Positions 2,015 through 44,990 of a DNA stretch of 52,201 nucleotides are shown in pieces. The notes beneath the pieces were generated by a model that was not told the origin of the DNA, did no database searches, and was given only the letters and a program-made list of their open reading frames with translations. Each line of letters begins with the position of its first letter. Within the stretch, counting starts at the first letter, position 1. A program made the position numbers and the translations under genes. Source of the stretch: a virus (Duplodnaviria > Caudoviricetes). Location: IMG/VR virus record IMGVR_UViG_3300045970_000109, positions 1 through 52,201 of that record. One strand, 5' to 3'.

Positions 2015-3337
2015 CTACACCTCGTCGATATAGAAAGTCTTTCCGGTTGTAGGTTCAGCTTGACTGCCAGAAATAATCCACTTCATCTTCTTTTGTGGGA
2101 ATGGAAGATCGTGAGGCATGAAGTCAACCTCACCATAGTAGTCAGTCAACCAGATAACAGTTGACATCTCAATATGCTCTTCTTTCTTAAGACGCCTAAT
2201 CTCTTCAATTACCGGCCAGAAAGCTGTGCCGCCACTCCAAGAGCTAATTGCCTCGTTATGCGTCTTGATATCCCCAGAGAACACAATATCACTAGTATGA
2301 ACGATGAAGTAGACAGGCTGTCTCGTATACTTCTCAATCAGTTCCTTAGCGATATTGGCAGCATCATTCAGCTGCTCAGGACCCATAGAACCAGAGCTAT
2401 CAAGCACAAAGCAGATCTTTTTGATGAGATCTGGATTGGTCTGAGTCACTACTGGAAGTCTAATGTTGCCTGGCATCATGTGATCCATGCGAGATCCACG
2501 ACTATCCCAACCCCAATCTTCAGAACACTCTCGGTCAGTGATATGCTTCAGAACCATACGCAGATTAACCTTAGGAGGTTCCAACATGAAGTTGAACTCT
2601 CGGAATCCCGTGCCATTACCGGGAAGCTTACTAGCATTCTTCTCAGCGTAGTTAGACAACTCAGACTGGACGATATCACGATCCATCTTGTCTTCATCAG
2701 ACAAGGCATCGTCCTCTTCCTGCTGCATATCTCCACCAAGAGACTTACCTTCACCACCACAACCACCACCAGAACGACTTACAGACACACGATAAAGATC
2801 ATCGTAAGTCCCTTCTGAAGTTAGCTTTTCGAACTTTGCTGGATCAAAGCAAAGGTTCTCATTGATAACTTTCAAGAAGGCAGTAAATGATTCCTTAGTC
2901 TGGAACATACCAGACTGCTCCATGATTTTAGCTACGAACTGATTGATCTGATAATCAGTTGCGATATTCCACATGCCAGGATCACGATGGCCTAAACGAC
3001 CAAACGAATCAAAGACGATATGACCAATCTCATGCAGTATAGTGAAGGCTACTCCCAGAATTGGAGTCGCAAACCAAGTCTTACCAGCCTCGACCACTTG
3101 CTTGCCGTGAACGGCATATAGACGAGGATTAATGTACACTCTGAAGCCGTTAGTCCAACCGAAGCTGGGATCTTTTGGCTTATCAGTTAGAATGATATCT
3201 ACACGCTGAAGTGCCTGGGTATAGAATGGCACTTTCTTGATGAGATAGTTTCTGAGAGCAGGAACGTCAATCTCGGGAACAGATGTCTCTTCCCAAAGCT
3301 TCTCAAAGGGTGTTACTTGTTTCGCTGGCGTAGCCAT
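2015..3337 (-). CDS. HExxH metallopeptidase + vWA domain protein (DUF2201-like), MoxR partner
   Basis: ILHEIGH, WNIATDYQIN, MIDAS LDSSGSM, GGT and LTD motifs. Confidence 0.85.
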   Translation of the reverse strand: MATPAKQVTPFEKLWEETSVPEIDVPALRNYLIKKVPFYTQALQRVDIILTDKPKDPSFGWTNGFRVYINPRLYAVHGKQVVEAGKTWFATPILGVAFTILHEIGHIVFDSFGRLGHRDPGMWNIATDYQINQFVAKIMEQSGMFQTKESFTAFLKVINENLCFDPAKFEKLTSEGTYDDLYRVSVSRSGGGCGGEGKSLGGDMQQEEDDALSDEDKMDRDIVQSELSNYAEKNASKLPGNGTGFREFNFMLEPPKVNLRMVLKHITDRECSEDWGWDSRGSRMDHMMPGNIRLPVVTQTNPDLIKKICFVLDSSGSMGPEQLNDAANIAKELIEKYTRQPVYFIVHTSDIVFSGDIKTHNEAISSWSGGTAFWPVIEEIRRLKKEEHIEMSTVIWLTDYYGEVDFMPHDLPFPQKKMKWIISGSQAEPTTGKTFYIDEV

Positions 3338-3362: not shown

Positions 3363-3800
3363 CTAATCACGACCAAAGAAGAAGAGCCAATCGGCATGCT
3401 TCAACTTTAGCTTATCAGTTGCTAGCTGGGACTCAAGAACCTGGGTCCAACCATCATACTCACGAACAGCAGAACTATGCTTCTGGATGCGATCATGACA
3501 CTCCATCAGCTTAGTCTGAAGATCGGCACGGACCATAACCTGTGGGCCACGGCCAGCATTAGAAGTGTAGGAGTTAGCAAGGGACTCACTGACCTCTAGG
3601 CCAGTATCCTTTACTTCCGCCATTACTTCTTCCTTCTTCTTTTCCCACCACTCAACACGGCTCTGACGATAGTCGCGTTTGATAGCAGCGGCATTAGCCA
3701 GCTGTTCAGCAGTGTATTCAAATTCCCAGTCTTTTCGATTCACTTCTTCTCCTACTCTGTAGTTGTGATTTTGATTGTATTCAATTTCATCCCAGTCCAT
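3363..3800 (-). CDS. hypothetical protein
   Basis: 145 aa ORF. Confidence 0.65.
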   Translation of the reverse strand: MDWDEIEYNQNHNYRVGEEVNRKDWEFEYTAEQLANAAAIKRDYRQSRVEWWEKKKEEVMAEVKDTGLEVSESLANSYTSNAGRGPQVMVRADLQTKLMECHDRIQKHSSAVREYDGWTQVLESQLATDKLKLKHADWLFFFGRD

Positions 3801-4111
3801 TAGATTACCACCTTTGGCGGGTTTAGAACTCGCATTTTATTGGCTAGATACCAAGTCCCACCCTGAGACTCTGGTCTTTCCAATGCTACATAATCAAGAA
3901 TTTCGACCTTACGCCACACTCGACCTACCGGCGACAAATGTGGAGCGATTGGCTTAGCCGTTACATGCCAACCAGTTCTAACGGCAAAGCCCTTAGTAGG
4001 ATGACACTCTGCTTCATACCAAACGCCTGTTTCAAGTCTTAGGCGTTTATTGATAAAGAGCGGTGCAATAGACCCGTCCTTCATCAATCTAAACAATTTC
4101 CATGCAATCAT
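3800..4111 (-). CDS. hypothetical phage protein
   Basis: 103 aa ORF, coupled start/stop. Confidence 0.65.
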   Translation of the reverse strand: MIAWKLFRLMKDGSIAPLFINKRLRLETGVWYEAECHPTKGFAVRTGWHVTAKPIAPHLSPVGRVWRKVEILDYVALERPESQGGTWYLANKMRVLNPPKVVI

Positions 4112-4308
4112 TATAGTCCCCAGGTAGCTAGTGGGTGTTCGTCGTAATACTTACTCTTACTAACCCAAGCTTGAATAGGTCCACTAGACTGTAGTTCAGC
4201 CATATCCCATAGCTTACGGAGGTCCTTACCTTCTTTCTCGGTAAGGATACCTCCGTTAGTTTTGTAGGAAAACAGTTCTTTTAGCTTGCTAAACTGAGCT
4301 GATGTCAT
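4111..4308 (-). CDS. hypothetical protein
   Basis: 65 aa ORF, coupled start/stop. Confidence 0.55.
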   Translation of the reverse strand: MTSAQFSKLKELFSYKTNGGILTEKEGKDLRKLWDMAELQSSGPIQAWVSKSKYYDEHPLATWGL

Positions 4309-17818: not shown

Positions 17819-18250
17819 ATGAAGAAACAGGCAGTAAAACCAAAGACTAAGTTGTTAACTAACTCTCTAGTTACTACCGGAAGAAGTCAAGGTGAGGAAA
17901 TCATTATTGCCTTATTGAGGGTGGCGTTCCCAGGACTTAAGATCGAAAGAAACGATAAGTCTGTTTTAGGCAGGCAAGAAATTGATATTCACCTTGTGGA
18001 CTATAAGATTGCTATCGAATGCGATGGAATCACTCATTCCAAGCCTATTTATGGGCAAAAGCGGTTTGAGGAGTCTGTAGCAAGGGATATTAAAAAGGAA
18101 GCCCGTCTTGCTGAATTGGGCTTCCTATTATATCGGGTAGATATCGGTGAAGTGGAAAAGGAAAAGTTGTATTCTTTTATCAAGAACTATATGAATACCA
18201 ACCTAATACCACAATTGAAAGAAGTTATCGTAAAGCGAGTTCCTTCTTGA
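17819..18250 (+). CDS. PD-(D/E)xK DUF559/Vsr-like endonuclease (free-standing)
   Basis: EIDIHL..YKIAIECDGITH, RDIKK...LGF. Confidence 0.75.
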   Translation: MKKQAVKPKTKLLTNSLVTTGRSQGEEIIIALLRVAFPGLKIERNDKSVLGRQEIDIHLVDYKIAIECDGITHSKPIYGQKRFEESVARDIKKEARLAELGFLLYRVDIGEVEKEKLYSFIKNYMNTNLIPQLKEVIVKRVPS

Positions 18251-19211
18251 CATACGACATCTGAGTAGACTTATACCAGTTGTCTAGATAGTCCATGTCA
18301 ATGTTCTCCTGAAGAGTGCTATTTGGCATTGAGTTATCCATAAGAAGGTTATAACCCACTTCCAACAGCGTTTGGGCCATCTCAAACGTACAAGCCTCAT
18401 TGAATCTAATGTCTCGTAAGGCACTTCTTACTGGTTCAGGTCTTGGGAAAACTAATTCTCCTGTAGTTAACAGTTCGTTTGCTTCGTCAATAATACGAAG
18501 AGCGTTATACATAGCTTTGCGATCAAAAGCACCACCTTCGGCAGCTTTCTTAGCTCGCTCTCCATAACGACTAATCATCGTTTCTATACGACTCTTCCAC
18601 TCATTGAATGGAACTAAACACTCAAACTGTTTATCAAGAATCTTGTAATAAGTAACAGGCTGACCGCCACTGTTAATCTTTTCGCCCCTCGTTATCAGAG
18701 TTGGATACTGCTCACATATCTTAGGAAGACCTACTGATGCATATTTACCATCAGTATAATCTTCACCAGTAGTGTCAGTAGTGACTGAATGGTATTTAGC
18801 CCAATAAATCATATCATCTTTGATAGCTCGGAGCATATTAAGAGAATTACCCTTTTCAGAATAAACCCTTGCCTGGGTCTTTGCATAATCTGCAAAGGGA
18901 GTGATGTTCTTACTCACCAGACAGTGTTTATTCGCACGGAGTTCTTCCCATACTGGGGAAGTCTCTATGATAAACTCCTTTGGCGTAAATAACATCTCTA
19001 TAGCGTTGGTTTGCTGTTGACCTAACAACAAGGCAAACCTTTTCAAACTCATGTGTTCAGTATCAGGGTCATAGGTGCGGAAACAATCATCAGCACCCGT
19101 AATCAGCTCTGACAGAGAGTGTGCGAAGACAACTTTATAGTCCCGGTCCGATTTTTCATAGTTGGTTCCATATAAGTGTGAGCCATGCAATGTTTGTACT
19201 ACAACCTTCAC
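18225..19211 (-). CDS. Pol-beta superfamily nucleotidyltransferase (T4 NrdC.11/RlaP-like)
   Basis: HGSHLYGT...SDRDYK, NAIEMLF, KAMYNALR, TGELVFPRP. Confidence 0.8.
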   Translation of the reverse strand: MKVVVQTLHGSHLYGTNYEKSDRDYKVVFAHSLSELITGADDCFRTYDPDTEHMSLKRFALLLGQQQTNAIEMLFTPKEFIIETSPVWEELRANKHCLVSKNITPFADYAKTQARVYSEKGNSLNMLRAIKDDMIYWAKYHSVTTDTTGEDYTDGKYASVGLPKICEQYPTLITRGEKINSGGQPVTYYKILDKQFECLVPFNEWKSRIETMISRYGERAKKAAEGGAFDRKAMYNALRIIDEANELLTTGELVFPRPEPVRSALRDIRFNEACTFEMAQTLLEVGYNLLMDNSMPNSTLQENIDMDYLDNWYKSTQMSYVKKELALR

Positions 19212-26585: not shown

Positions 26586-26658
26586 AATGCTCCTTGTTGG
26601 GTTGTTAATAGCAATTAAAAATGCCCTCGAAAGGGCGAAGGGTAATAGAATTAAATAT

Positions 26659-27360
26659 ATGATTTATGATAATGAAACCCTTCGCCAACTTATAACCAAG
26701 TATAAGAGTAGAGAGCAAGTTCCTCTTATTTGCAGCTCCTGTGAAAGAACGTTTACAAAACAGAAGAATGAGATTCAGTGGGTATTAAAAAGAAAACCGA
26801 CAAGTGTTATAACTTGTTCTCCTGCTTGTGGATCACGGCTAAATAGAGTTGACAGAATTACTAAGTTCTGTGTAAACTGTAGTATTTCTATAGTAAGAAA
26901 AGCTTCTGAAGAGGTTGGTAATTCTTTTTGTTCTTCTAAATGCTCTGCTACTTATAGTAACACACACAAAACAACCGGAACTAGGCGCTCTAAATTAGAG
27001 ACTTGGTTAGAACAACAACTAATCTCACTATACCCTAACTTAGCCTTCCAGTTCAACATGAAGGATACCATTCAATCTGAGTTGGACATCTATATCCCAA
27101 CTCTTAAGTTAGCTTTTGAGCTAAATGGTATCTTTCATTATGAACCTATATATGGTGTTGAGAAACTTGCTTCTATATTAAACAATGATACACGAAAGTT
27201 TCAAGCTTGCTTAGAACATGGTATTGAACTATGTATTATTGATAGCAGCAAGCAAAAGTATTTTACTGAAAAAAGTAGCCAGCAGTTTTTGACTATCATA
27301 GAGACTATAATCAGTCAAAAACTACTGGCGATGCAGAGAGTATCCGATTCGAACGGATGA
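26659..27360 (+). CDS. Zn-finger + PD-(D/E)xK (DUF559-like) free-standing endonuclease
   Basis: CxxC...FCSSKC repeats; ELDIYIPTLKLAFELNGIFHY. Confidence 0.8.
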   Translation: MIYDNETLRQLITKYKSREQVPLICSSCERTFTKQKNEIQWVLKRKPTSVITCSPACGSRLNRVDRITKFCVNCSISIVRKASEEVGNSFCSSKCSATYSNTHKTTGTRRSKLETWLEQQLISLYPNLAFQFNMKDTIQSELDIYIPTLKLAFELNGIFHYEPIYGVEKLASILNNDTRKFQACLEHGIELCIIDSSKQKYFTEKSSQQFLTIIETIISQKLLAMQRVSDSNG

Positions 27361-27419
27361 ACCTTTTGGGTTAATAGTTTTCTAGACTATCGGATTAAGC
27401 CGGGCTCTCCCAACTCTCT
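27334..27419 (-). tRNA. tRNA-Ser(AGA), A34, no encoded CCA
   Basis: ATAGT-CTAGAAA-ACTAT arm, long variable arm, G73. Confidence 0.8.
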
Positions 27420-27650: not shown

Positions 27651-28241
27651 TTATAACATTTTGATATTACGGTGATTGTTCATACTGAAATAATCATGCA
27701 TCACAGCAACTGCTGTAATACTGTTATTCATATCAGGCTCTCGCCAGTCAGTATGGTAATTCCAGTTATGAGAACCTTTGTAGTAGAACCTTCTAGTAAT
27801 TTCATCGAAGGACCTAGCATACTTATCAGGCTCTGTTTGTAAAAGAACTAAGGTTCCATTTGTCCAAGGTGCAAAGGGGTGTTCCTTTAAGAACTGTGCA
27901 GCTGCGTGTGCTGATTGGACAGCTTTCTGTGACTCTGATAGTTCGTGGTCACAAATGATATACAGCTTCTTCGCTCCTGGATTGTCAAAGTAGGTCTTCC
28001 ATGAATCAATGCGCTCCCTAAGTTGAGCATTCTTATCAGTCGATATTCTGCACTGAAGTTTGTTTGGATTCTTGGAAGGTGTTTCAATAGGACCCTTGTG
28101 CGTTCTATGCATACCTCTTAGCTCACTCATTGCAATGTGCAATGCTCTGTAACGAAGTGTATCATGTCCTGCAAGGGTCTTTAAAAGAAGCTTAGCTTTG
28201 TTCCAAGCTTCCTTTTGTTCGGGTGTAAAAGTAGTCGCCAT
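27651..28241 (-). CDS. protein with C-terminal peptidyl-tRNA hydrolase 2 (Pth2)-like domain
   Basis: KLYII...LS.SQKAVQSAHAAAQF, TLVLL, WREPDMNNSITAVA; start MATT after GGAG. Confidence 0.7.
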   Translation of the reverse strand: MATTFTPEQKEAWNKAKLLLKTLAGHDTLRYRALHIAMSELRGMHRTHKGPIETPSKNPNKLQCRISTDKNAQLRERIDSWKTYFDNPGAKKLYIICDHELSESQKAVQSAHAAAQFLKEHPFAPWTNGTLVLLQTEPDKYARSFDEITRRFYYKGSHNWNYHTDWREPDMNNSITAVAVMHDYFSMNNHRNIKML

Positions 28242-28286
28242 GTTATTCTCCATGAAATAGGCAGTTATTAATCAAGTCAATAACGG

Positions 28287-28328
28287 CTATTATCATGGTG
28301 GTCTAGTTGATACCTAGAGCTTCTTCAT
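28287..28328 (-). promoter_or_regulatory. amber-interrupted leader ORF MKKL*VSTRPP*** paired with downstream RBS
   Basis: AAGGAG RBS; ATG AAG AAG CTC TAG GTA TCA ACT AGA CCA CCA TGA TAA TAG; CCATGA pairs with TCATGG at the RBS. Confidence 0.7.
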
Positions 28329-28365
28329 AGGATACTCTCCTTATACATAATTGTTATATCGTGAG

Positions 28366-28441
28366 TGGTGGCTCTGGCGGTAGTCGAAACCGCGATAAAA
28401 GGTTTAGAGTCTCCTGCTTTGGGCCGCTAAGCTACAGAGCC
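28366..28441 (-). tRNA. amber suppressor tRNA (anticodon CTA)
   Basis: GGCTCTG/CAGAGCC-A-CCA acceptor, loop CTCTAAA, weak stem GGAGA/CCTTT. Confidence 0.8.
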
Positions 28442-28447
28442 AATATT

Positions 28448-31347: not shown

Positions 31348-31959
31348 CTAAGAATACTCCTGCAGACATAAATCCTCCGTATTTATGATTTGGTAAGGAC
31401 CTCTTACACCAGCATTGTATTTAGCAGCCGTTCTAAACGCTGTTATCAAGTGCTGGTCTGGGAGCATCGTTTCGTTGAGGTTAGTGGTAGCTTCAAGAGA
31501 ACCTATCGCATACTCGCCTCCTCCACCTATTGCCAAGAATGGCATGTCTATCTCTGCTACATCGAAATCTTCGCCCACCTGAAACATCTTGTCTCGGATG
31601 CTAATAAGGAAGGAAGCCGGTGATAATGATGGCTCAGCCTCAGTGTTCTTTCTTTCAGGATCTTCTACTAGCATACCTTCTGTGTGCAGGACTTTAAAAA
31701 GTTTCCCGCAGAATACGGTGGAGATATATTCTAGTAGTTGATCATTCCTCAACTTCTTCGTTGTAGGAAGCTTCAATTTGAATTGAATTATCTGAAAGAT
31801 GCGGCAACCCACTGTGGTCATGCCGATTATCATTTCTTCTTTCACTATTAGTTTGCTAGAGGCTCGTTTAATCATTTGATATGAGCCAGTATCCAGGAAG
31901 ATACTGTCACACCCCATGTAAATCTTGCCATCTGCTTTCAATGCAGCAATTACAGTCAT
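31348..31959 (-). CDS. HslV/proteasome-beta-like Ntn protease
   Basis: N-terminal Thr2, MGCDS, SKL, AIGGGGEYAIGSL, VRGPY. Confidence 0.8.
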   Translation of the reverse strand: MTVIAALKADGKIYMGCDSIFLDTGSYQMIKRASSKLIVKEEMIIGMTTVGCRIFQIIQFKLKLPTTKKLRNDQLLEYISTVFCGKLFKVLHTEGMLVEDPERKNTEAEPSLSPASFLISIRDKMFQVGEDFDVAEIDMPFLAIGGGGEYAIGSLEATTNLNETMLPDQHLITAFRTAAKYNAGVRGPYQIINTEDLCLQEYS

Positions 31960-31992
31960 ATTACCCTCAAGTAGTCCACAAGTATATATCGA

Positions 31993-32277
31993 CTATTGGG
32001 TATCAACCTCTACTTTGTATTCATGCATCTCACATTCACCATGCTCTGTCCAACCAGAATAAGCTCGTTTACCACCTTGAGCTATCTCGCCCATACAAAT
32101 CCACCCTTTAGGCTCATTGCAATGGCATTTCTGCCTAGGGTCTTTTGCTGGTAACTTTACTGTTGTACAGTGGTGAAAGTCCTGAATGTGGTGTTTGCAG
32201 TTACAGCAGCAGTTATGAGGTCTGGTATTAAGATCTTCGATACAACGATGTGCCTCTACAATCTCACACGGTTTCAT
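31993..32277 (-). CDS. Cys/His-rich small protein
   Basis: CCCNCKHH ... HGECEMH. Confidence 0.55.
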   Translation of the reverse strand: MKPCEIVEAHRCIEDLNTRPHNCCCNCKHHIQDFHHCTTVKLPAKDPRQKCHCNEPKGWICMGEIAQGGKRAYSGWTEHGECEMHEYKVEVDTQ

Positions 32278-33631
32278 GATCGGTATCTACCTCTTCTTCA
32301 TCTGCCAAGCTCTGTTCAGATTCCAAGTCAACTAGACCCTTATCCAGATCCTTGGTTTCCTTATCCAAGAAGGCAAAGTTCTTCAGTTTATAAGCAGGGC
32401 ACTCAAAAAGGCCGTCTACTCTTACGACGATACCTTCTTCCCAAACATCACCACTATTCAGCGGACATTTTCTATCACGCATGTAATCGGCTTCCAACTT
32501 AGCCAAGAAGTTTTGATTCCAATGCTGCTCAAGAGGAATGTCAGGGCAGTAATCCTTAGCTTTACCATAGTAGAACTCCGTTACATGTTTGATTCCGTAT
32601 TTATTGCAATATTCCTTGATCTGCGGCCAGGAGAACTCAATCACCTGTCCCGCAGCATTAGTAGAGGTAATGCGATAAACGTAAACCTCATGTTCGTTAG
32701 GGCGTGTGCCATAGTGGTAGCCTTTTTGGATCCAAGCTCCTGTTGGAAGCTGACCTACAGCTTCGCCGTATAGAGTGATACCATCCTGAATGCTACTCTT
32801 AAGGTAATCTGCGATCACGCCCCACAAGTCAAAGTTGTAAAAGCCGCTATTAACAGTTGTGTTAATATACTTGTTCTTAACAACAGTACGACTTGAATAG
32901 ATGACATCGTATTTGGTATTATTAAAAGCTGTTGGAACGAACTTGGTAAAGATGGACTTCCACCAGGGGAGTGGCTCCTTAGTAAGAACCTTACCAACAA
33001 CCCAAGAAGTACCATGAATCTTGTTAGTAATGCTGATCATGTCCTCTGGATTGAGCTTGTGTGCATTGCGGCGAAGGTTTTCGGTGTCAATGTGCAGTCT
33101 GAACTGATTCTCCACCAGACGATCAAACTTATTGACCTTCTTCTTATCCTTCTGCTTCTGTGTGCCAGACTCTTTTACGCGAATGACATACTTGCAGCAG
33201 ATTTCATGCCCGAGGATCTTATCGAAGTCAACACCCTTAACGATGTAGGGTTCAAGTTCCTTAGCGCGGGTGATATCAATCATGATGTAATTGAGACAGG
33301 CAATAGGCATGAACAAGCCTTCCGACTTATGACCACGGAACTTCATGGTCTTAATGCGCCTGTTTTCTTCAAAGTAACCCTTCTTGGTTACATCCCTATT
33401 GAGTTCAGCCTTACGATAAAGGTTGTTCTCGCCAACAAAATCATGACTAAGCTGTGTCTCAGCAGGGAAGAACAAACCAAGATCACCAACCTTGGTATCT
33501 TTCCCAACAATTACGCTGTTACCAAAGATAATAGCAGCGACAACATTGTCACAATTTTCCAGCTCAACTAGCTTTTCAATCTCAACCAGTGTGGCGCAGT
33601 AGTTAGGATTGATTGGTTTTTCAAGGCTCAT
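32264..33631 (-). CDS. ATP-dependent RNA ligase (Rnl2/DRB0094-like) with N-terminal OB fold
   Basis: KIHGTS, LYGE, EEGIVVR, YKLK; N-terminal KFRGHKSEGLFMP. Confidence 0.85.
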   Translation of the reverse strand: MSLEKPINPNYCATLVEIEKLVELENCDNVVAAIIFGNSVIVGKDTKVGDLGLFFPAETQLSHDFVGENNLYRKAELNRDVTKKGYFEENRRIKTMKFRGHKSEGLFMPIACLNYIMIDITRAKELEPYIVKGVDFDKILGHEICCKYVIRVKESGTQKQKDKKKVNKFDRLVENQFRLHIDTENLRRNAHKLNPEDMISITNKIHGTSWVVGKVLTKEPLPWWKSIFTKFVPTAFNNTKYDVIYSSRTVVKNKYINTTVNSGFYNFDLWGVIADYLKSSIQDGITLYGEAVGQLPTGAWIQKGYHYGTRPNEHEVYVYRITSTNAAGQVIEFSWPQIKEYCNKYGIKHVTEFYYGKAKDYCPDIPLEQHWNQNFLAKLEADYMRDRKCPLNSGDVWEEGIVVRVDGLFECPAYKLKNFAFLDKETKDLDKGLVDLESEQSLADEEEVDTDHETV

Positions 33632-36684: not shown

Positions 36685-38166
36685 TTACAGTGAAAAGGGC
36701 GCTACAGCTTCCTTCACAGGAGCGTAGCGTGGGTTGTCAAGGACTTCCATCAGCATCTCAATTGGAGATACTGAGGTGGCGTTAACCGCCTTCTGGAAGA
36801 TAGAAGGAGAGCATCCTGAAACAAGATACACACCCTTCTCGTCCTTGGTAACTGGAGCTTGCTGGCCTCGGCTAGCAACATTCCAGAACACCACCTTAGG
36901 CAGCTCGTAACCAGCATCTGCAAACTTACGCTTAGCGGATTCAAAGTTAGTCAAGCTGCTGTCTCGCATACAACGATCAAACTCCATGTCGGAGATGATG
37001 AAGATGCTGTCAGGCAGTTCGGACTGAGGAACCTTATTGGAAACTGCAGCGTTCAACACAAGGTCAAACACAGCTTCCATGTTAGTGTTCATGTCCCAAT
37101 TAGCCTGAGAAAGATTATTGATACGCTCACGAAGAGTAGTATCAACAAGGTTCTGAAGCTGAGGACGCTCAGAGAAGGTAATGAACTGATCCTTGAAGCA
37201 ACCCTTATTGCGCTCGGCAATGTAGATAGCAAGAGAGATACAGACCTCCATAGGAGTTCCGCTCATGCTACCAGACACGTCAGCAACAACAAGAGCATTC
37301 TTGTCGGTATCAGCATAGTTAGGCAACTGCTTCCACAGAGCCTCAAGAGTCAGGTCGACTCCACTGGAAGCTCCCCAACCACCATGAATACCATACTTGT
37401 GCAGGATGTCATAGGGATAGAGAACTGCAGAGTTGATCTTCACTTCACCCTTAACAGCGGCTTCAATAAACTGCTGATACCGTGTGGCATCATGCTTAGC
37501 GAAAGCCTGCTTGTAGATGAGAGAAGCCCTGGAAGGAACAGAAGAGTAGTTCACCTTAACCCACTCGTTAGCAGACATCTTACGCTCAACGATGTCAATG
37601 TGCTTACGAAGAGCAGACAACTTCTGCCTGTATTCCTTTTCAGTCAGGCCGAGAATCTTAGCCCACTTACGACCAAGAGCCTGAGTCTCCTTAGAGGAAG
37701 TGTTGATAGAAGGCATCCACTTGGCAAGCAAGGAGATAGACTCGCTATCCTTCATGTGGTCGGAGTCAATGTTCAGCTGAGCCTTGATAAGCTCTCTGAC
37801 AATAGGACTATCGGTATATTCGAGAATGTCATCCCAACGACCATACTCAGATACCATGTTAACCACGGTATCGAAGATCAAAGGGCGTTCATTCTTCAGG
37901 ATAGTTAGGCAATTACGGAAACTATCCCGTTCTCCCTGCCCACCGCGAGGATCACGCAAGTAGAAAAGAACTCGCGTGGCCAGTCCTGCGTCAGAGGACA
38001 ATGCCTTATGGAAAAGGTTATCAATCTCAGTCTTCTGACCGCGCTTGGCAGGAGCGTGATAGAAGAAGTCCAGGATGTTATCCATCGTGGAGCTGTGAGT
38101 TACAGCATCATTCTCTGTACGAGTCATGTTGCTGGTCTGTGCGAGAGCCTGTTGGAAGAGATTCAT
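36685..38166 (-). CDS. DUF2828 family protein (TROVE/Ro60-like helical domain + vWA)
   Basis: TEN, LDFF, FYLRDPRGGQGER, YGRWDD, LLAKWMPS, ADVSGSM, ISDMEFD, VFWNV; start MNLF after AAAGGA. Confidence 0.85.
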   Translation of the reverse strand: MNLFQQALAQTSNMTRTENDAVTHSSTMDNILDFFYHAPAKRGQKTEIDNLFHKALSSDAGLATRVLFYLRDPRGGQGERDSFRNCLTILKNERPLIFDTVVNMVSEYGRWDDILEYTDSPIVRELIKAQLNIDSDHMKDSESISLLAKWMPSINTSSKETQALGRKWAKILGLTEKEYRQKLSALRKHIDIVERKMSANEWVKVNYSSVPSRASLIYKQAFAKHDATRYQQFIEAAVKGEVKINSAVLYPYDILHKYGIHGGWGASSGVDLTLEALWKQLPNYADTDKNALVVADVSGSMSGTPMEVCISLAIYIAERNKGCFKDQFITFSERPQLQNLVDTTLRERINNLSQANWDMNTNMEAVFDLVLNAAVSNKVPQSELPDSIFIISDMEFDRCMRDSSLTNFESAKRKFADAGYELPKVVFWNVASRGQQAPVTKDEKGVYLVSGCSPSIFQKAVNATSVSPIEMLMEVLDNPRYAPVKEAVAPFSL

Positions 38167-38178
38167 GGTATTTCCTTT

Positions 38179-38225
38179 CAAGATACGGTTTAACCGTGTG
38201 ATGGTGGGATTGCTGTTAGTATCTT
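38179..38225 (-). ncRNA. CAGCAA-stem (Y-like) RNA copy abutting DUF2828 RBS
   Basis: AAGATAC-TAA-CAGCAAT ... GTATCTTG. Confidence 0.75.
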
Positions 38226-44897: not shown

Positions 44898-44990
44898 TGG
44901 TAGGCGCGTAGGGAATCGAACCCTAACAAGGGGCTAATCTGGCCCAGTGGAGTTTATAAGTCTCCCTATGCTACCATACATCACACGCCT
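44898..44990 (-). tRNA. tRNA with anticodon TAT (Ile) and long variable arm
   Basis: GGAGA-CTTATAA-ACTCC, V-arm GGGC..GCCC, CCA. Confidence 0.8.

Follow-up and report, generated by a model that had tools for sequence, protein, structure and literature searches.

A putative amber-suppression-gated leader of a gene for a predicted Pth2-like protein in a jumbo phage

Translational attenuation by leader peptides probably works, in the erm and cat leaders as in SecM-secA and MifM-yidC2, through a short Shine-Dalgarno (SD)-led ORF, in which the position of a slow ribosome near the end decides whether a helix hiding the SD site or start codon of the next gene is open. In the TnaC leader of the tna operon, which ends R23-P24-UGA, peptidyl-tRNA(Pro) at the stop codon resists release, and the stalled ribosome controls the downstream genes; terminal prolines have been noted to be common in arrest peptides (PMC8450073). 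Arrest peptides of the RAPP/RxPP type (ApdA, ApdP and SecM-like; PMC10951233, PMC12992588) carry R-x-P-P and stall between the two prolines during elongation, with x = G, A, S or P inducing arrest (PMC12992588). An in-frame stop codon may also serve as a sensor: in the autoregulation of release factor 2, an early in-frame UGA of prfB appears to measure the balance between termination and a +1 frameshift. Moreover, engineered leader peptides with an inserted TAG, built on trp/tna leaders and acting on transcription through a rut site, read out amber suppression (PMC6412442). Phage-encoded suppressor tRNAs with dedicated accessory elements next to them have been described in the code-change modules of stop-codon-recoded phages (preprint 10.1101/2021.08.26.457843) and beside theta ribozymes (PMC10879173). 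Those modules hold aminoacyl-tRNA synthetases, release factors or ribozymes (a hydrolase is mentioned 0 times) and serve genomes with many in-frame stops. Suppressor tRNAs are common in large phages, yet their targets are often unknown; in the case of XacN1, none could be named for two tRNA(CUA) genes (PMC5852040).

In the present study we analysed a 52,201-nt stretch of phage DNA (IMGVR_UViG_3300045970_000109, positions 1 to 52,201; hereafter the window), which represents only about 23% of its genome. A sequence-only reading of this window had proposed that only ribosomes reading through a UAG codon reach the Pro-stop end of a short leader, where they free the ribosome-binding site (RBS) of a Pth2-like gene. 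We confirmed the underlying observation, and the comparative evidence described below supports this core inference. The locus, located on the minus strand, comprises the following features:

28366..28441 (-), amber suppressor tRNA, anticodon CUA, 76 nt, with anticodon loop CTCTAAA and an encoded CCA end
28329..28365 (-), 37-nt spacer between the tRNA 3' end and the leader ATG, holding the SD sequence of the leader, AAGGAG (28342-28337)
28293..28328 (-), leader ORF MKKL-TAG-VSTRPP-TGA, with ATG at 28328-28326, the UAG sensor codon at 28316-28314, Arg at -3 at 28304-28302, the terminal Pro at 28298-28296 and the final stop TGA at 28295-28293
28287..28298 (-), 5' arm of the anti-RBS helix (CCATGA then TAATAG), covering the last Pro codon, the TGA and the two following stop triplets
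28264..28284 (-), inner hairpin (GTTATTGA ... TTAATAAC) that closes the loop of the anti-RBS helix
28239..28262 (-), 3' arm of the helix and RBS of the gene: CTATT and TCATGG (28255-28250), GGAG (28251-28248) and start codon ATG 28241-28239
27978..28241 (-), N-terminal four-helix domain (about residues 1-88) of the 196-aa protein, basic, with no clear structural match
27651..27977 (-), C-terminal predicted Pth2-like alpha/beta domain (about residues 89-196) and the TAA stop, with invariant Q..AVQ..H and E-P-D..N..T-A motifs

The tRNA was identified with ARAGORN and scored 55.7 bits as tRNA in Rfam, against a gathering score of 29. Comparison with 83 other tRNAs of the loci gave no clear isotype. 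The start of the gene at 28241 is supported by the aligned N-termini of homologues. Scans for promoters and terminators gave counts at shuffle level, and no sigma-70-like promoter or terminator-like site was detected on this strand between tRNA and gene, which is compatible with co-transcription but does not show it. There is no expression evidence, and the regulatory model presented below rests on sequence comparison and thermodynamic calculations alone.

In order to test whether the leader recurs, we searched for the pattern ATG, 1-7 codons, TAG, 3-5 codons, CCN, stop, which was found in 11 of 12 distinct tRNA-to-gene spacers of homologues, against a mean of 0.016 of 12 and a maximum of 1 in 2000 rounds of dinucleotide shuffles. 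It should be noted that the pattern was defined after it had been seen, and that the loci are related to one another, so that these and the following counts are not independent events. In total, 26 distinct leaders were identified upstream of homologues down to about 30% identity, each with an in-frame TAG, then 4-6 codons, then a terminal Pro. The invariant TAG is preceded by 2-8 codons, is followed by a purine in 25 of 26 cases, and lies only 15, 18 or 21 nt from the final stop. The terminal Pro is written as CCC (11), CCA (10), CCT (4) or CCG (1), while Lys or Arg at -3, present in 20 of 26 leaders, is written as AGA, CGT, CGC, AAG or AAA. When a terminal Pro was not required, the only SD-led TAG-uORF at -79 to -109 of each gene still ended in Pro. 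These data indicate that the frame after the UAG is under selection at the peptide level. However, one close relative, locus L004 (the handles with L denote individual homologous loci), which lies on the same contig as L014, keeps the tRNA and the gene but has no leader, and two remote relatives, L040 and L065, also lack it. The triple in-frame stop, from which the sequence-only reading had inferred translation beyond the UAG, is peculiar to this window and is not conserved.

In 11 of 26 leaders the tail is R-x-P with x = P, S, A or G, i.e. the same set of x residues as reported for RxPP, and 9 of 26 tails are K-P-P, but a stop codon stands where the second Pro would be and no fourth residue exists. 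In comparison with TnaC, which is 24 residues long, needs free tryptophan and acts by blocking Rho, Arg is at -3 rather than -2, no ligand is implied, the target is an RBS helix, and an internal UAG gates access to the stall site. The nascent chain is only 7-15 residues, whereas known arrest peptides of the RAPP and TnaC types are longer, and thus a true arrest is uncertain.

In the minimum-free-energy fold, CCATGA (28298-28293) pairs with TCATGG (28255-28250), which overlaps the GGAG ahead of the start codon. The 121-nt stretch folds at -30.9 kcal/mol (z = -3.95; 0 of 200 shuffles fold as well), and the centroid fold also shows the helix. The same inner hairpin occurs in L005 and L006. The duplex with the RBS is -10.2 kcal/mol in the window, against -5.6 for shuffles. 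In all 23 leaders tested, the 25 nt around the leader stop pair with the RBS more strongly than shuffles (mean -11.4 against -6.1 kcal/mol), and in 18 of them fewer than 5% of shuffles do as well. Different SD contexts have matching partners, e.g. CCATAA with TTATGG in L013, where the other loci have CCATGA with TCATGG. RNAalifold applied to a MAFFT alignment of 11 leaders gave no consensus structure, because the anti-SD segments are misaligned by indels, and the pairing evidence therefore rests on sequence-by-sequence duplex calculations and constraint folding.

We next modelled the effect of ribosome position, assuming a 30-nt ribosome footprint. The energy required to open the RBS is 7-13 kcal/mol with a ribosome at the UAG, and falls by at least 3.4 kcal/mol with a ribosome at the final stop in 16 of 20 leaders (in the window, from 9.9 to 6.5 kcal/mol). 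In the remaining 4 leaders the model shows little or no opening: L002 and L017 drop by about 1.5 kcal/mol, L015 rises, and L011 rises when its Pth2-like gene is scored, because an extra ORF lies between leader and gene.

An alternative possibility is that the leader is translated only up to the UAG, as a minigene of 2-8 codons, and that the conserved part downstream is an anti-RBS RNA element and not peptide, in which case control would depend on release factor 1 availability, on peptidyl-tRNA drop-off, or on nothing at all (a constitutive structure). Indeed, 14 of 26 leaders have only two codons before the TAG, which resembles minigenes, and in the subgroups where the final codons read CCATGA this hexamer is also the complement of the start-codon region, so that RNA pairing alone would keep it there. 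The gene product is Pth-like and Pth probably deals with drop-off products, although nothing in our data supports the drop-off idea, which was also part of the sequence-only reading. We consider this explanation unlikely, since the terminal Pro and the -3 Lys/Arg are kept with four and five different codons, respectively, the Pro codons in the subgroups ending CCC TAA or CCT TAA are not part of the start-codon complement, the final stop is always in frame with the ATG and the TAG, and a ribosome at the UAG does not open the RBS in the model.

A second, independent design was observed in single-domain relatives, which carry the in-frame stop inside the gene itself, at codons 3-9. In 10 distinct genes of this type, ATG is followed by 1-8 codons, TAG and then the domain, with no other start codon between, so that read-through must happen there, which also argues against the minigene. 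Intriguingly, L038 has TGA at that place and a tRNA(UCA) beside it, i.e. the stop type follows the neighbouring anticodon, and L075 has both devices. The single-domain design needs no helix at all, so gating itself is the conserved trait, and it is conceivable that read-through gates expression without ribosome stalling and helix melting. The read-through ribosome could instead protect the mRNA from an endonuclease or from Rho, as in tna, or the module could be a timer, in which the gene switches on only after the tRNA has accumulated and the protein has no action on suppression; stop-codon recoding has been proposed as a timer of late genes (preprint 10.1101/2021.08.26.457843). The 4 leaders with weak opening would agree with such a view, but we regard it as improbable in the light of the pairing observed in all 23 leaders tested, the absence of a terminator-like site on this strand between leader and gene, and the very tight linkage to the tRNA, which suggests a functional tie beyond timing.

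Analysis of the gene neighbourhoods revealed a suppressor tRNA within 1.5 kb, always on the same strand, in 39 of 55 distinct loci (32 of 39 among loci with at least 700 nt on both sides). Nine of the 16 loci without a suppressor tRNA within this distance have short flanks.

We also considered whether the phage reads TAG as a sense codon throughout, as in a code-15 genome, in which case the leader would be an ordinary short arrest or attenuator peptide sensing something else, such as proline supply, EF-P or release factor 2; its Pro-stop end could respond to release factor 2 or EF-P. Lak megaphages, reported to be TAG-recoded (preprint 10.1101/2021.08.26.457843), carry a homologue of the domain (15 of 15 records), which lies about 650 nt downstream of a tRNA(UUA), although its start could not be defined. 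However, in the window 20 of 70 minus-strand ORFs of at least 80 aa end in TAG, and the read-through extensions of TAG-ended genes do not differ from those of TAA- or TGA-ended genes. Only 1 adjacent in-frame pair on the coding strand is separated by TAG, the same number as for TGA and for TAA, and the one candidate split pair, 31348-32286, looks like two genes. Open-frame totals under codes with one stop read as sense were not informative, either in the window or in 28 loci. In five related jumbo genomes, 18 of 18 terminase and AAA matches have no in-frame stop. Furthermore, a sense codon would drift to synonyms, yet TAG is invariant in 26 of 26 leaders while the neighbouring codons vary. Genome-wide recoding is therefore unlikely, and the genomes sampled otherwise appear to use the standard code, although recoded late genes could lie outside the 23% of this genome that was seen.

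Archaeal and eukaryotic Pth2 proteins (PF01981; PDB 1wn2, 2zv3, 3erj, 1xty, 1q7s) have an alpha/beta fold described as four strands and four helices (PMC11202043). The AlphaFold2 model of the 196-aa protein (mean pLDDT 90.5) gave Z 10.2 to 1wn2_A (102 residues aligned, rmsd 2.8, 21% identity) and Z 9.0 to 2gax_B, with the next hit at 4.9, which is also the best Z for the N-terminal domain. Foldseek ranks 1-7 were Pth2 chains (probabilities 0.93-1.00, E from 4e-3). In contrast, the protein matched 0 Pfam families at E <= 0.1, a six-frame search of the window found none, a sequence search of the PDB gave only chance hits, and a 49-sequence full-length profile gave 0 hits in the PDB. A domain-only profile hit only Pth2 chains in the PDB (E 1e-3 to 2e-3), with a match running end to end. 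Of 49 close relatives, 5 matched PF01981 weakly (best E 0.043), while 9 of 10 single-domain relatives matched at E 2e-6 to 0.012, 2 of these 10 being over the 23-bit cut-off. The domain is therefore a remote homologue of Pth2 and not a member by the curated rule. In the alignments to 24bt_A, 1rzw_A and 2zv3_A the His and the second Gln of the first motif and the T-A of the last strand are shared, but the Lys that immediately precedes the conserved Q..H stretch aligns with an invariant Gln (Q18 of the alignment) and the Asp of the second motif with an invariant Glu (E81). This Lys and Asp are probably the catalytic residues of the Sulfolobus enzyme, and hence hydrolase activity is not assured. 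An extra N-terminal helical domain is present, and the family, with 3838 representative relatives, is phage-borne.

Taken together, the most probable explanation is that the stretch is a three-part module of a standard-code jumbo phage, in which expression of a divergent Pth2-like protein is gated by nonsense suppression. In the proposed mechanism, ribosomes start at the strong SD site of the leader. If release factor 1 wins at the UAG, they leave after 4 codons, the helix stays closed and the gene is off. If the suppressor tRNA decodes the UAG, they translate six more codons and arrive at Arg-Pro-Pro-UGA, where a ribosome covers the 5' arm of the helix, running from the last Pro codon to about 10 nt past the stop, and thus frees the GGAG and the start codon. 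A C-terminal R/K-x-Pro before a stop is the kind of end that terminates slowly, which would presumably lengthen the open time. The fixed spacing of 15-21 nt from UAG to the final stop keeps a ribosome waiting at the UAG from opening the helix. Production of the protein would thus be proportional to suppression efficiency. The stalling and the direction of the switch in vivo are inferred, as is the role of the protein: by analogy with other in-frame-stop sensors we suppose that it acts on the same balance, most likely by hydrolysing an ester (aminoacyl or peptidyl) on the suppressor tRNA or on tRNAs stranded by suppression, giving feedback or clean-up.

Compared with the erm, cat, SecM and MifM leaders, the input here is whether an in-frame UAG is read through, and not an antibiotic or secretion activity, the leader is far shorter, and the proposed pause is at a stop codon. 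In prfB the product itself is probably sensed, whereas here the alternative event is suppression by a tRNA encoded next door. The element appears to be a natural version of the engineered TAG switches, acting on translation initiation, and it would give orphan suppressor tRNAs a concrete, conserved target and a partner protein family; the short leaders are compact reporters of suppression efficiency. Our literature searches, which did not include supplementary files, found no description of this module. A bolder possibility, which we put forward only tentatively, is that the module is a self-contained homeostat of the genetic-code state, in which the sensor sets the level of a Pth2-derived enzyme that acts back on the ester of the suppressor tRNA, deacylating it or releasing it from peptidyl-tRNA. 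This would be the first natural nonsense-suppression sensor and the first dedicated protein partner of suppressor tRNAs, and would also explain why standard-code jumbo phages such as XacN1 carry amber suppressors with no known targets.

Finally, we investigated the distribution of the module. A blastn search with 3 kb of the window found only tRNA-sized matches in 10 phage records. Two large window proteins were sought in four related records, with no match for the first and one match for the second, and the module therefore travels between otherwise different phages. A natural variant of the leader found in another metagenome (one contig of depth 4.5) keeps TAG, Arg, Pro (CCA to CCG) and TGA. 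Cultured carriers exist, e.g. Serratia phage BF, in which the homologue lies in an unannotated gap, annotation pipelines missing the single-domain genes because of the in-frame stop.

The IMG/VR virus record (52,201 bases) was estimated to be 23% complete and is therefore a fragment of a jumbo phage. It carries 12 tRNA genes. One of these, a tRNA-Ile with anticodon TAT (window 44898-44990, minus strand), is 93 nt long, which is unusual for a class I tRNA and may reflect an intron or an odd variable arm. Genes of the RNA-repair and tRNA-maintenance kind lie among the tRNA genes, namely those for an RNA ligase (phrog_968, E 1e-74), a nucleotidyltransferase (phrog_388, E 8e-57) and an "RNA-binding protein" (phrog_850, E 3e-145), at window 32264-33631(-), 18225-19211(-) and 36685-38181(-). 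The last of them has a 59% identical homologue in a related 313-kb jumbo phage genome (G003). Two HNH or homing-endonuclease-like genes were also noted, at 26587-27360(+) and 2015-3337(-). The first is on the opposite strand, wedged between the region of the Pth2-like gene and tRNA-Ser (27333-27419), which it overlaps by 28 nt, and one of the homologous loci collected in this study (L002) has a similar gene at the matching place (3542-4291, minus strand).

The module of interest comprises, in order on the minus strand:

28366-28441 (-), tRNA with anticodon CTA (Rfam tRNA, 55.7 bits)
28328-28287 (-), leader MKKL-TAG-VSTRPP followed by TGA TAA TAG, preceded by AAGGAG and starting 37 nt after the tRNA
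28241-27651 (-), ORF of 196 aa, starting 51 nt after the TGA of the leader

The hairpin proposed in the sequence-only reading is present in both the minimum-free-energy and the centroid folds: CCATGA (28298-28293) pairs with TCATGG (28255-28250), which overlaps the GGAG of the gene. The helix is extended by pairing of TAATAG with CTATT and is closed by an inner hairpin. The stretch folds at -30.9 kcal/mol (z = -3.95), and 0 of 200 shuffles fold as well. The observation is confirmed. Between the 3' end of the tRNA and the SD of the leader (28343-28365, minus strand) lies an A/T-rich block (ACGATATA..AATTAT.TATA), conserved at the same place in the loci L005 and L006, which could be a phage promoter or a processing site, although the sigma-70 scan did not flag it on this strand. 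Interestingly, a 31-kb contig of a lake metagenome matches the window on both sides of the tRNA(CUA), but in place of the 72-nt tRNA body (28371-28442) it contains about 533 nt that did not match at the 80% likeness setting. This could represent a replaced, interrupted or intron-bearing tRNA in a sister strain.

The 196-aa protein matched no Pfam family and gave a weak PHROG match to a "hydrolase" family (phrog_3668, E 6.7e-7). An AlphaFold2 model built on 49 relatives (mean pLDDT 90.5) shows four helices (residues 7-86) and an alpha/beta domain (residues 92-195). For the latter, Foldseek ranked Pth2 structures first (1xty, 3erj, 2zv3, 1rlk, then 1q7s and 1wn2, with E from 4e-3), and a search that does not depend on Foldseek gave Z 10.2 to 1wn2 (102 residues, rmsd 2.8) and Z 9.0 to 2gax, with nothing else above 4.9. 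A profile of the domain constructed from 26 loci hit four PDB sequences at E <= 10, all of them Pth2 (24bt, 1e-3; 1rzw, 1.8e-3; 2zv3, 2e-3; 1q7s, 0.69). Against 1.84 billion representatives the same profile found 3838 proteins at E <= 1e-3, most of them 95-110 residues long, and 9 of 10 sampled proteins matched PF01981 at E 2e-6 to 0.012. In addition, a protein-language-model atlas placed the protein nearest to viral clusters in which about 30% of members carry PTH2. The designation "Pth2-like", used in the sequence-only reading, is therefore right as remote homology. However, the Lys that immediately precedes the conserved Q..H stretch of the Pth2 chains aligns with an invariant Gln, and the Asp of the second motif aligns with an invariant Glu. 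Since this Lys and Asp probably constitute the catalytic pair of the Sulfolobus enzyme, the activity of the phage protein is uncertain.

Relatives of the protein were collected from IMG/VR and from metagenomes. Together with the window itself and two Lak phage records this gave 81 loci. The two Lak loci lack the exact motif used for counting, and the remaining 79 fall into 55 distinct loci. In the close relatives the tRNA(CUA) sits directly upstream, and an SD-led small ORF with an in-frame TAG lies between it and the gene (e.g. MKY-TAG-QRPP-stop, MTGRSHL-TAG-VLARSP-stop, MKTL-TAG-VSPRAP-stop and MS-TAG-TRPP-stop). In relatives of about 30-35% identity the tRNA(CUA) lies downstream of the gene, yet the leader is still in front of it (e.g. 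MT-TAG-VSKPP-stop, MK-TAG-ICKPP-stop, MS-TAG-ITGPP-stop and MR-TAG-ILRPP-stop). Intriguingly, in the remote two-domain relatives the leader is preceded by a tRNA-like element (L019:2552-2628, L021:2686-2764, L023:676-742, L024:2598-2676, L025:2545-2625, L026:359-442, L027:145-223, L029:253-335, and L062 upstream of its leader; Rfam tRNA 38-49 bits). Its acceptor, D and T arms and its CCA end are conserved, whereas the "anticodon arm" is extended and variable, and in L023 is reduced to a tetraloop hairpin, so that the element cannot decode. It occupies the place of the real tRNA(CUA) of the close relatives and may be a degenerate copy kept as a processing signal.

In the 26 distinct leaders TAG is invariant, with 2-8 codons preceding it and exactly 4-6 codons following it; the distance to the final stop is 15 nt in 3 leaders, 18 nt in 13 and 21 nt in 10. 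The last residue is Pro in 26 of 26, written with all four codons (CCC 11, CCA 10, CCT 4, CCG 1), and position -3 is Lys or Arg in 20 of 26, written with five different codons. The base after TAG is a purine in 25 of 26, and the final stop is TAA in 17, TGA in 8 and TAG in 1. When the requirement for a terminal Pro was dropped, the same ORFs and no other SD-led ones appeared at this position. The pattern was found in 11 of 12 distinct spacers, against a mean of 0.016 of 12 in 2000 rounds of dinucleotide shuffles, although it was defined after the fact and the loci are related, so this is a lower bar than it looks. A variant of the leader of the window, identified in a contig of another freshwater metagenome (one contig of depth 4.5), changes six positions of the post-TAG peptide region yet keeps TAG, Arg, Pro (CCA to CCG) and TGA. 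The synonymous variation at Pro and at Lys/Arg, together with the strict frame, shows that the part after the UAG is selected as a peptide, and it must therefore be translated at least some of the time. In contrast, the triple in-frame stop, from which the sequence-only reading had deduced translation of this frame, is not conserved. The leader is absent from one close relative, L004 (the same contig as L014), and from two remote relatives, L040 and L065.

In every subgroup the stretch from the last Pro codon to about 15 nt past the stop is complementary to the Shine-Dalgarno site of the gene, its start codon, or both. In the subgroup of the window CCATGA pairs with TCATGG at the SD. In a second subgroup the same hexamer pairs with the start-codon region and the next CCT(T) pairs with the SD; L013 has CCATAA with TTATGG where the others have CCATGA with TCATGG. 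In the remote subgroup an anti-SD located 1-4 nt after the stop changes together with the SD context (...TCTTCTAG with CTAGGAGA, CTCCG with CGGAG, AATCCT with AGGATT). Over 23 leaders the duplex energy averages -11.4 kcal/mol, against -6.1 for shuffled 5' segments, and in 18 of 23 fewer than 5% of shuffles do as well (the worst case is 15%).

We then forced a 30-nt footprint to be unpaired. With the A site of the ribosome on the UAG, the energy needed to open the ribosome-binding site is 7-13 kcal/mol. With the A site on the final stop it falls by at least 3.4 kcal/mol in 16 of 20 leaders (from 9.9 to 6.5 kcal/mol in the window), and the transition lies 3-12 nt before the stop. A consensus fold by RNAalifold failed on the MAFFT alignment, so this evidence is sequence by sequence and purely thermodynamic. 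Of the four exceptions, L002 and L017 show small drops and L015 shows a rise, while in L011 an extra ORF of 58 aa (L011:354-530) lies between the leader and the Pth2-like gene, and the leader-proximal hairpin covers the ribosome-binding site of that ORF instead.

Many single-domain relatives have no leader. Instead, they start with ATG, 1-8 codons and TAG, and then run straight into the conserved domain with no ATG, GTG or TTG between. We identified 10 distinct cases (e.g. MT-TAG-INNQKLRV..., MKKH-TAG-VHKLRV..., MTFM-TAG-NKNYIYV... and MTTLIPDT-TAG-VQHLY...), several of them behind a clear SD. The locus L038 has TGA at that place (MTH-TGA-IQRL...) and the tRNA beside it has anticodon TCA, but this is a single case, and a TTG three codons after the TGA could be an alternative start. 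The locus L075 splits the two domains into two ORFs and uses both devices. Seven further cases are ambiguous because another start follows the stop, and seven have ordinary starts. The existence of two unrelated ways of making the same protein family depend on read-through of a stop codon is the strongest argument that gating by suppression is the selected trait.

A tRNA with anticodon CTA (37 loci), TCA (1) or TTA (1) lies within 1.5 kb in 39 of the 55 distinct loci, always on the same strand; among loci with at least 700 nt on both sides the count is 32 of 39. Lak megaphages carry the domain about 650 nt downstream of a tRNA(TTA), an ochre suppressor (L043:2237-3303 and L044, Prevotella phages Lak-A2 and Lak-B5). 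In Lak-A2 the frame of the domain opens right after TAA TAA in an A-rich stretch with no ATG, GTG or TTG, and directly follows a 128-aa helical ORF in another frame. TAG is nevertheless an ordinary stop in the window. It ends 20 of 70 minus-strand ORFs of at least 80 aa, and their read-through extensions do not differ from those of other ORFs. Only one adjacent in-frame ORF pair on the coding strand is split by TAG, the same number as for TGA and for TAA, and it looks like two genes. In five related jumbo genomes, four of them 95-100% complete, 18 of 18 terminase and AAA matches have no in-frame stop. These are therefore standard-code phages in which the leader, or the N-terminus of the gene itself, is so far the only visible target of the suppressor. 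It is noteworthy that related jumbo phage genomes encode short proteins with an RF-1 (GGQ) domain (L082, i.e. G003:212903-213223, and L083 and L084 in the genome G004), with open frames of 195, 173 and 108 aa, which by size look like ArfB-type rescue factors; one of them lies about 10 kb from the Pth2-like module of G003.

Comparison of the loci thus reveals a translated post-UAG frame with a conserved R/K-x-Pro end, a fixed UAG-to-stop distance, pairing of the stop-proximal segment with the ribosome-binding site, linkage to the tRNA and a predicted Pth2 fold. From this we infer that ribosomes released at the UAG leave the helix closed, whereas ribosomes that read through sit on its 5' arm at the Pro-stop and open the site. 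The tail resembles ends that terminate slowly: TnaC ends R23-P24-UGA and stalls at termination, and terminal prolines were noted to be common in arrest peptides (PMC8450073). Here 11 of 26 tails are R-x-P with x = P, S, A or G, but a stop codon replaces the second Pro and the chains are very short, and a real arrest is therefore not assured. The mechanism put forward in the sequence-only reading, in which only ribosomes reading through the UAG open the hairpin, is supported by this independent comparative evidence, and suppression-gated expression seems probable, albeit without experimental data.

The role of the protein is more tentative. Sensors built from an in-frame stop, of which prfB appears to be an example, usually control a factor that acts on the same decoding balance. 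A Pth2-derived protein made in proportion to suppression would fit an enzyme that removes the acyl or peptidyl group from the suppressor tRNA, which would be negative feedback, but also one that clears tRNA esters produced as a by-product of suppression. There is no direct evidence for this step, and a feedback role is possible rather than likely.

The element works like a leader-peptide translational attenuator and like TnaC, but with a new input. An engineered equivalent exists, in which a TAG was inserted into trp/tna-type leaders (PMC6412442), whereas we found no natural one in our literature searches, in which amber codons in leader peptides appeared only in engineering work and reviews. 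The partnership between suppressor tRNAs and a phage Pth2-like family likewise seems to be previously unremarked: the two phage papers examined that mention a suppressor tRNA and a peptidyl-tRNA hydrolase merely list them side by side, no paper combining suppressor tRNA with Pth2 was retrieved, and neither "peptidyl-tRNA hydrolase" in the retrieved papers on recoded phages nor "hydrolase" in the recoding preprint (10.1101/2021.08.26.457843) occurs.

A single-domain query revealed the family in 36 phage records of the RaK2/XacN1 kind. In Serratia phage BF the homologue lies in an unannotated gap and reads, behind GAGGA, M-T-H-TAG-N-D-K-T-W-I-Y-V-F-V-R-T-D-L..., with a tRNA(CUA) 3.3 kb downstream on the same strand. 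The homologue of RaK2 has an ordinary start. In Xanthomonas phage XacN1, for which two tRNA(CUA) genes without identifiable targets were reported (PMC5852040), ORF364 (L085:~955-1812) has AGAGGA and ATG AAG TAG four codons before its annotated start, which itself has no SD. This ORF, as well as the loci L042 and L077, represents a longer form of the family (279 aa), whose N-terminal part appears to carry H..HD-like motifs typical of HD phosphohydrolases.
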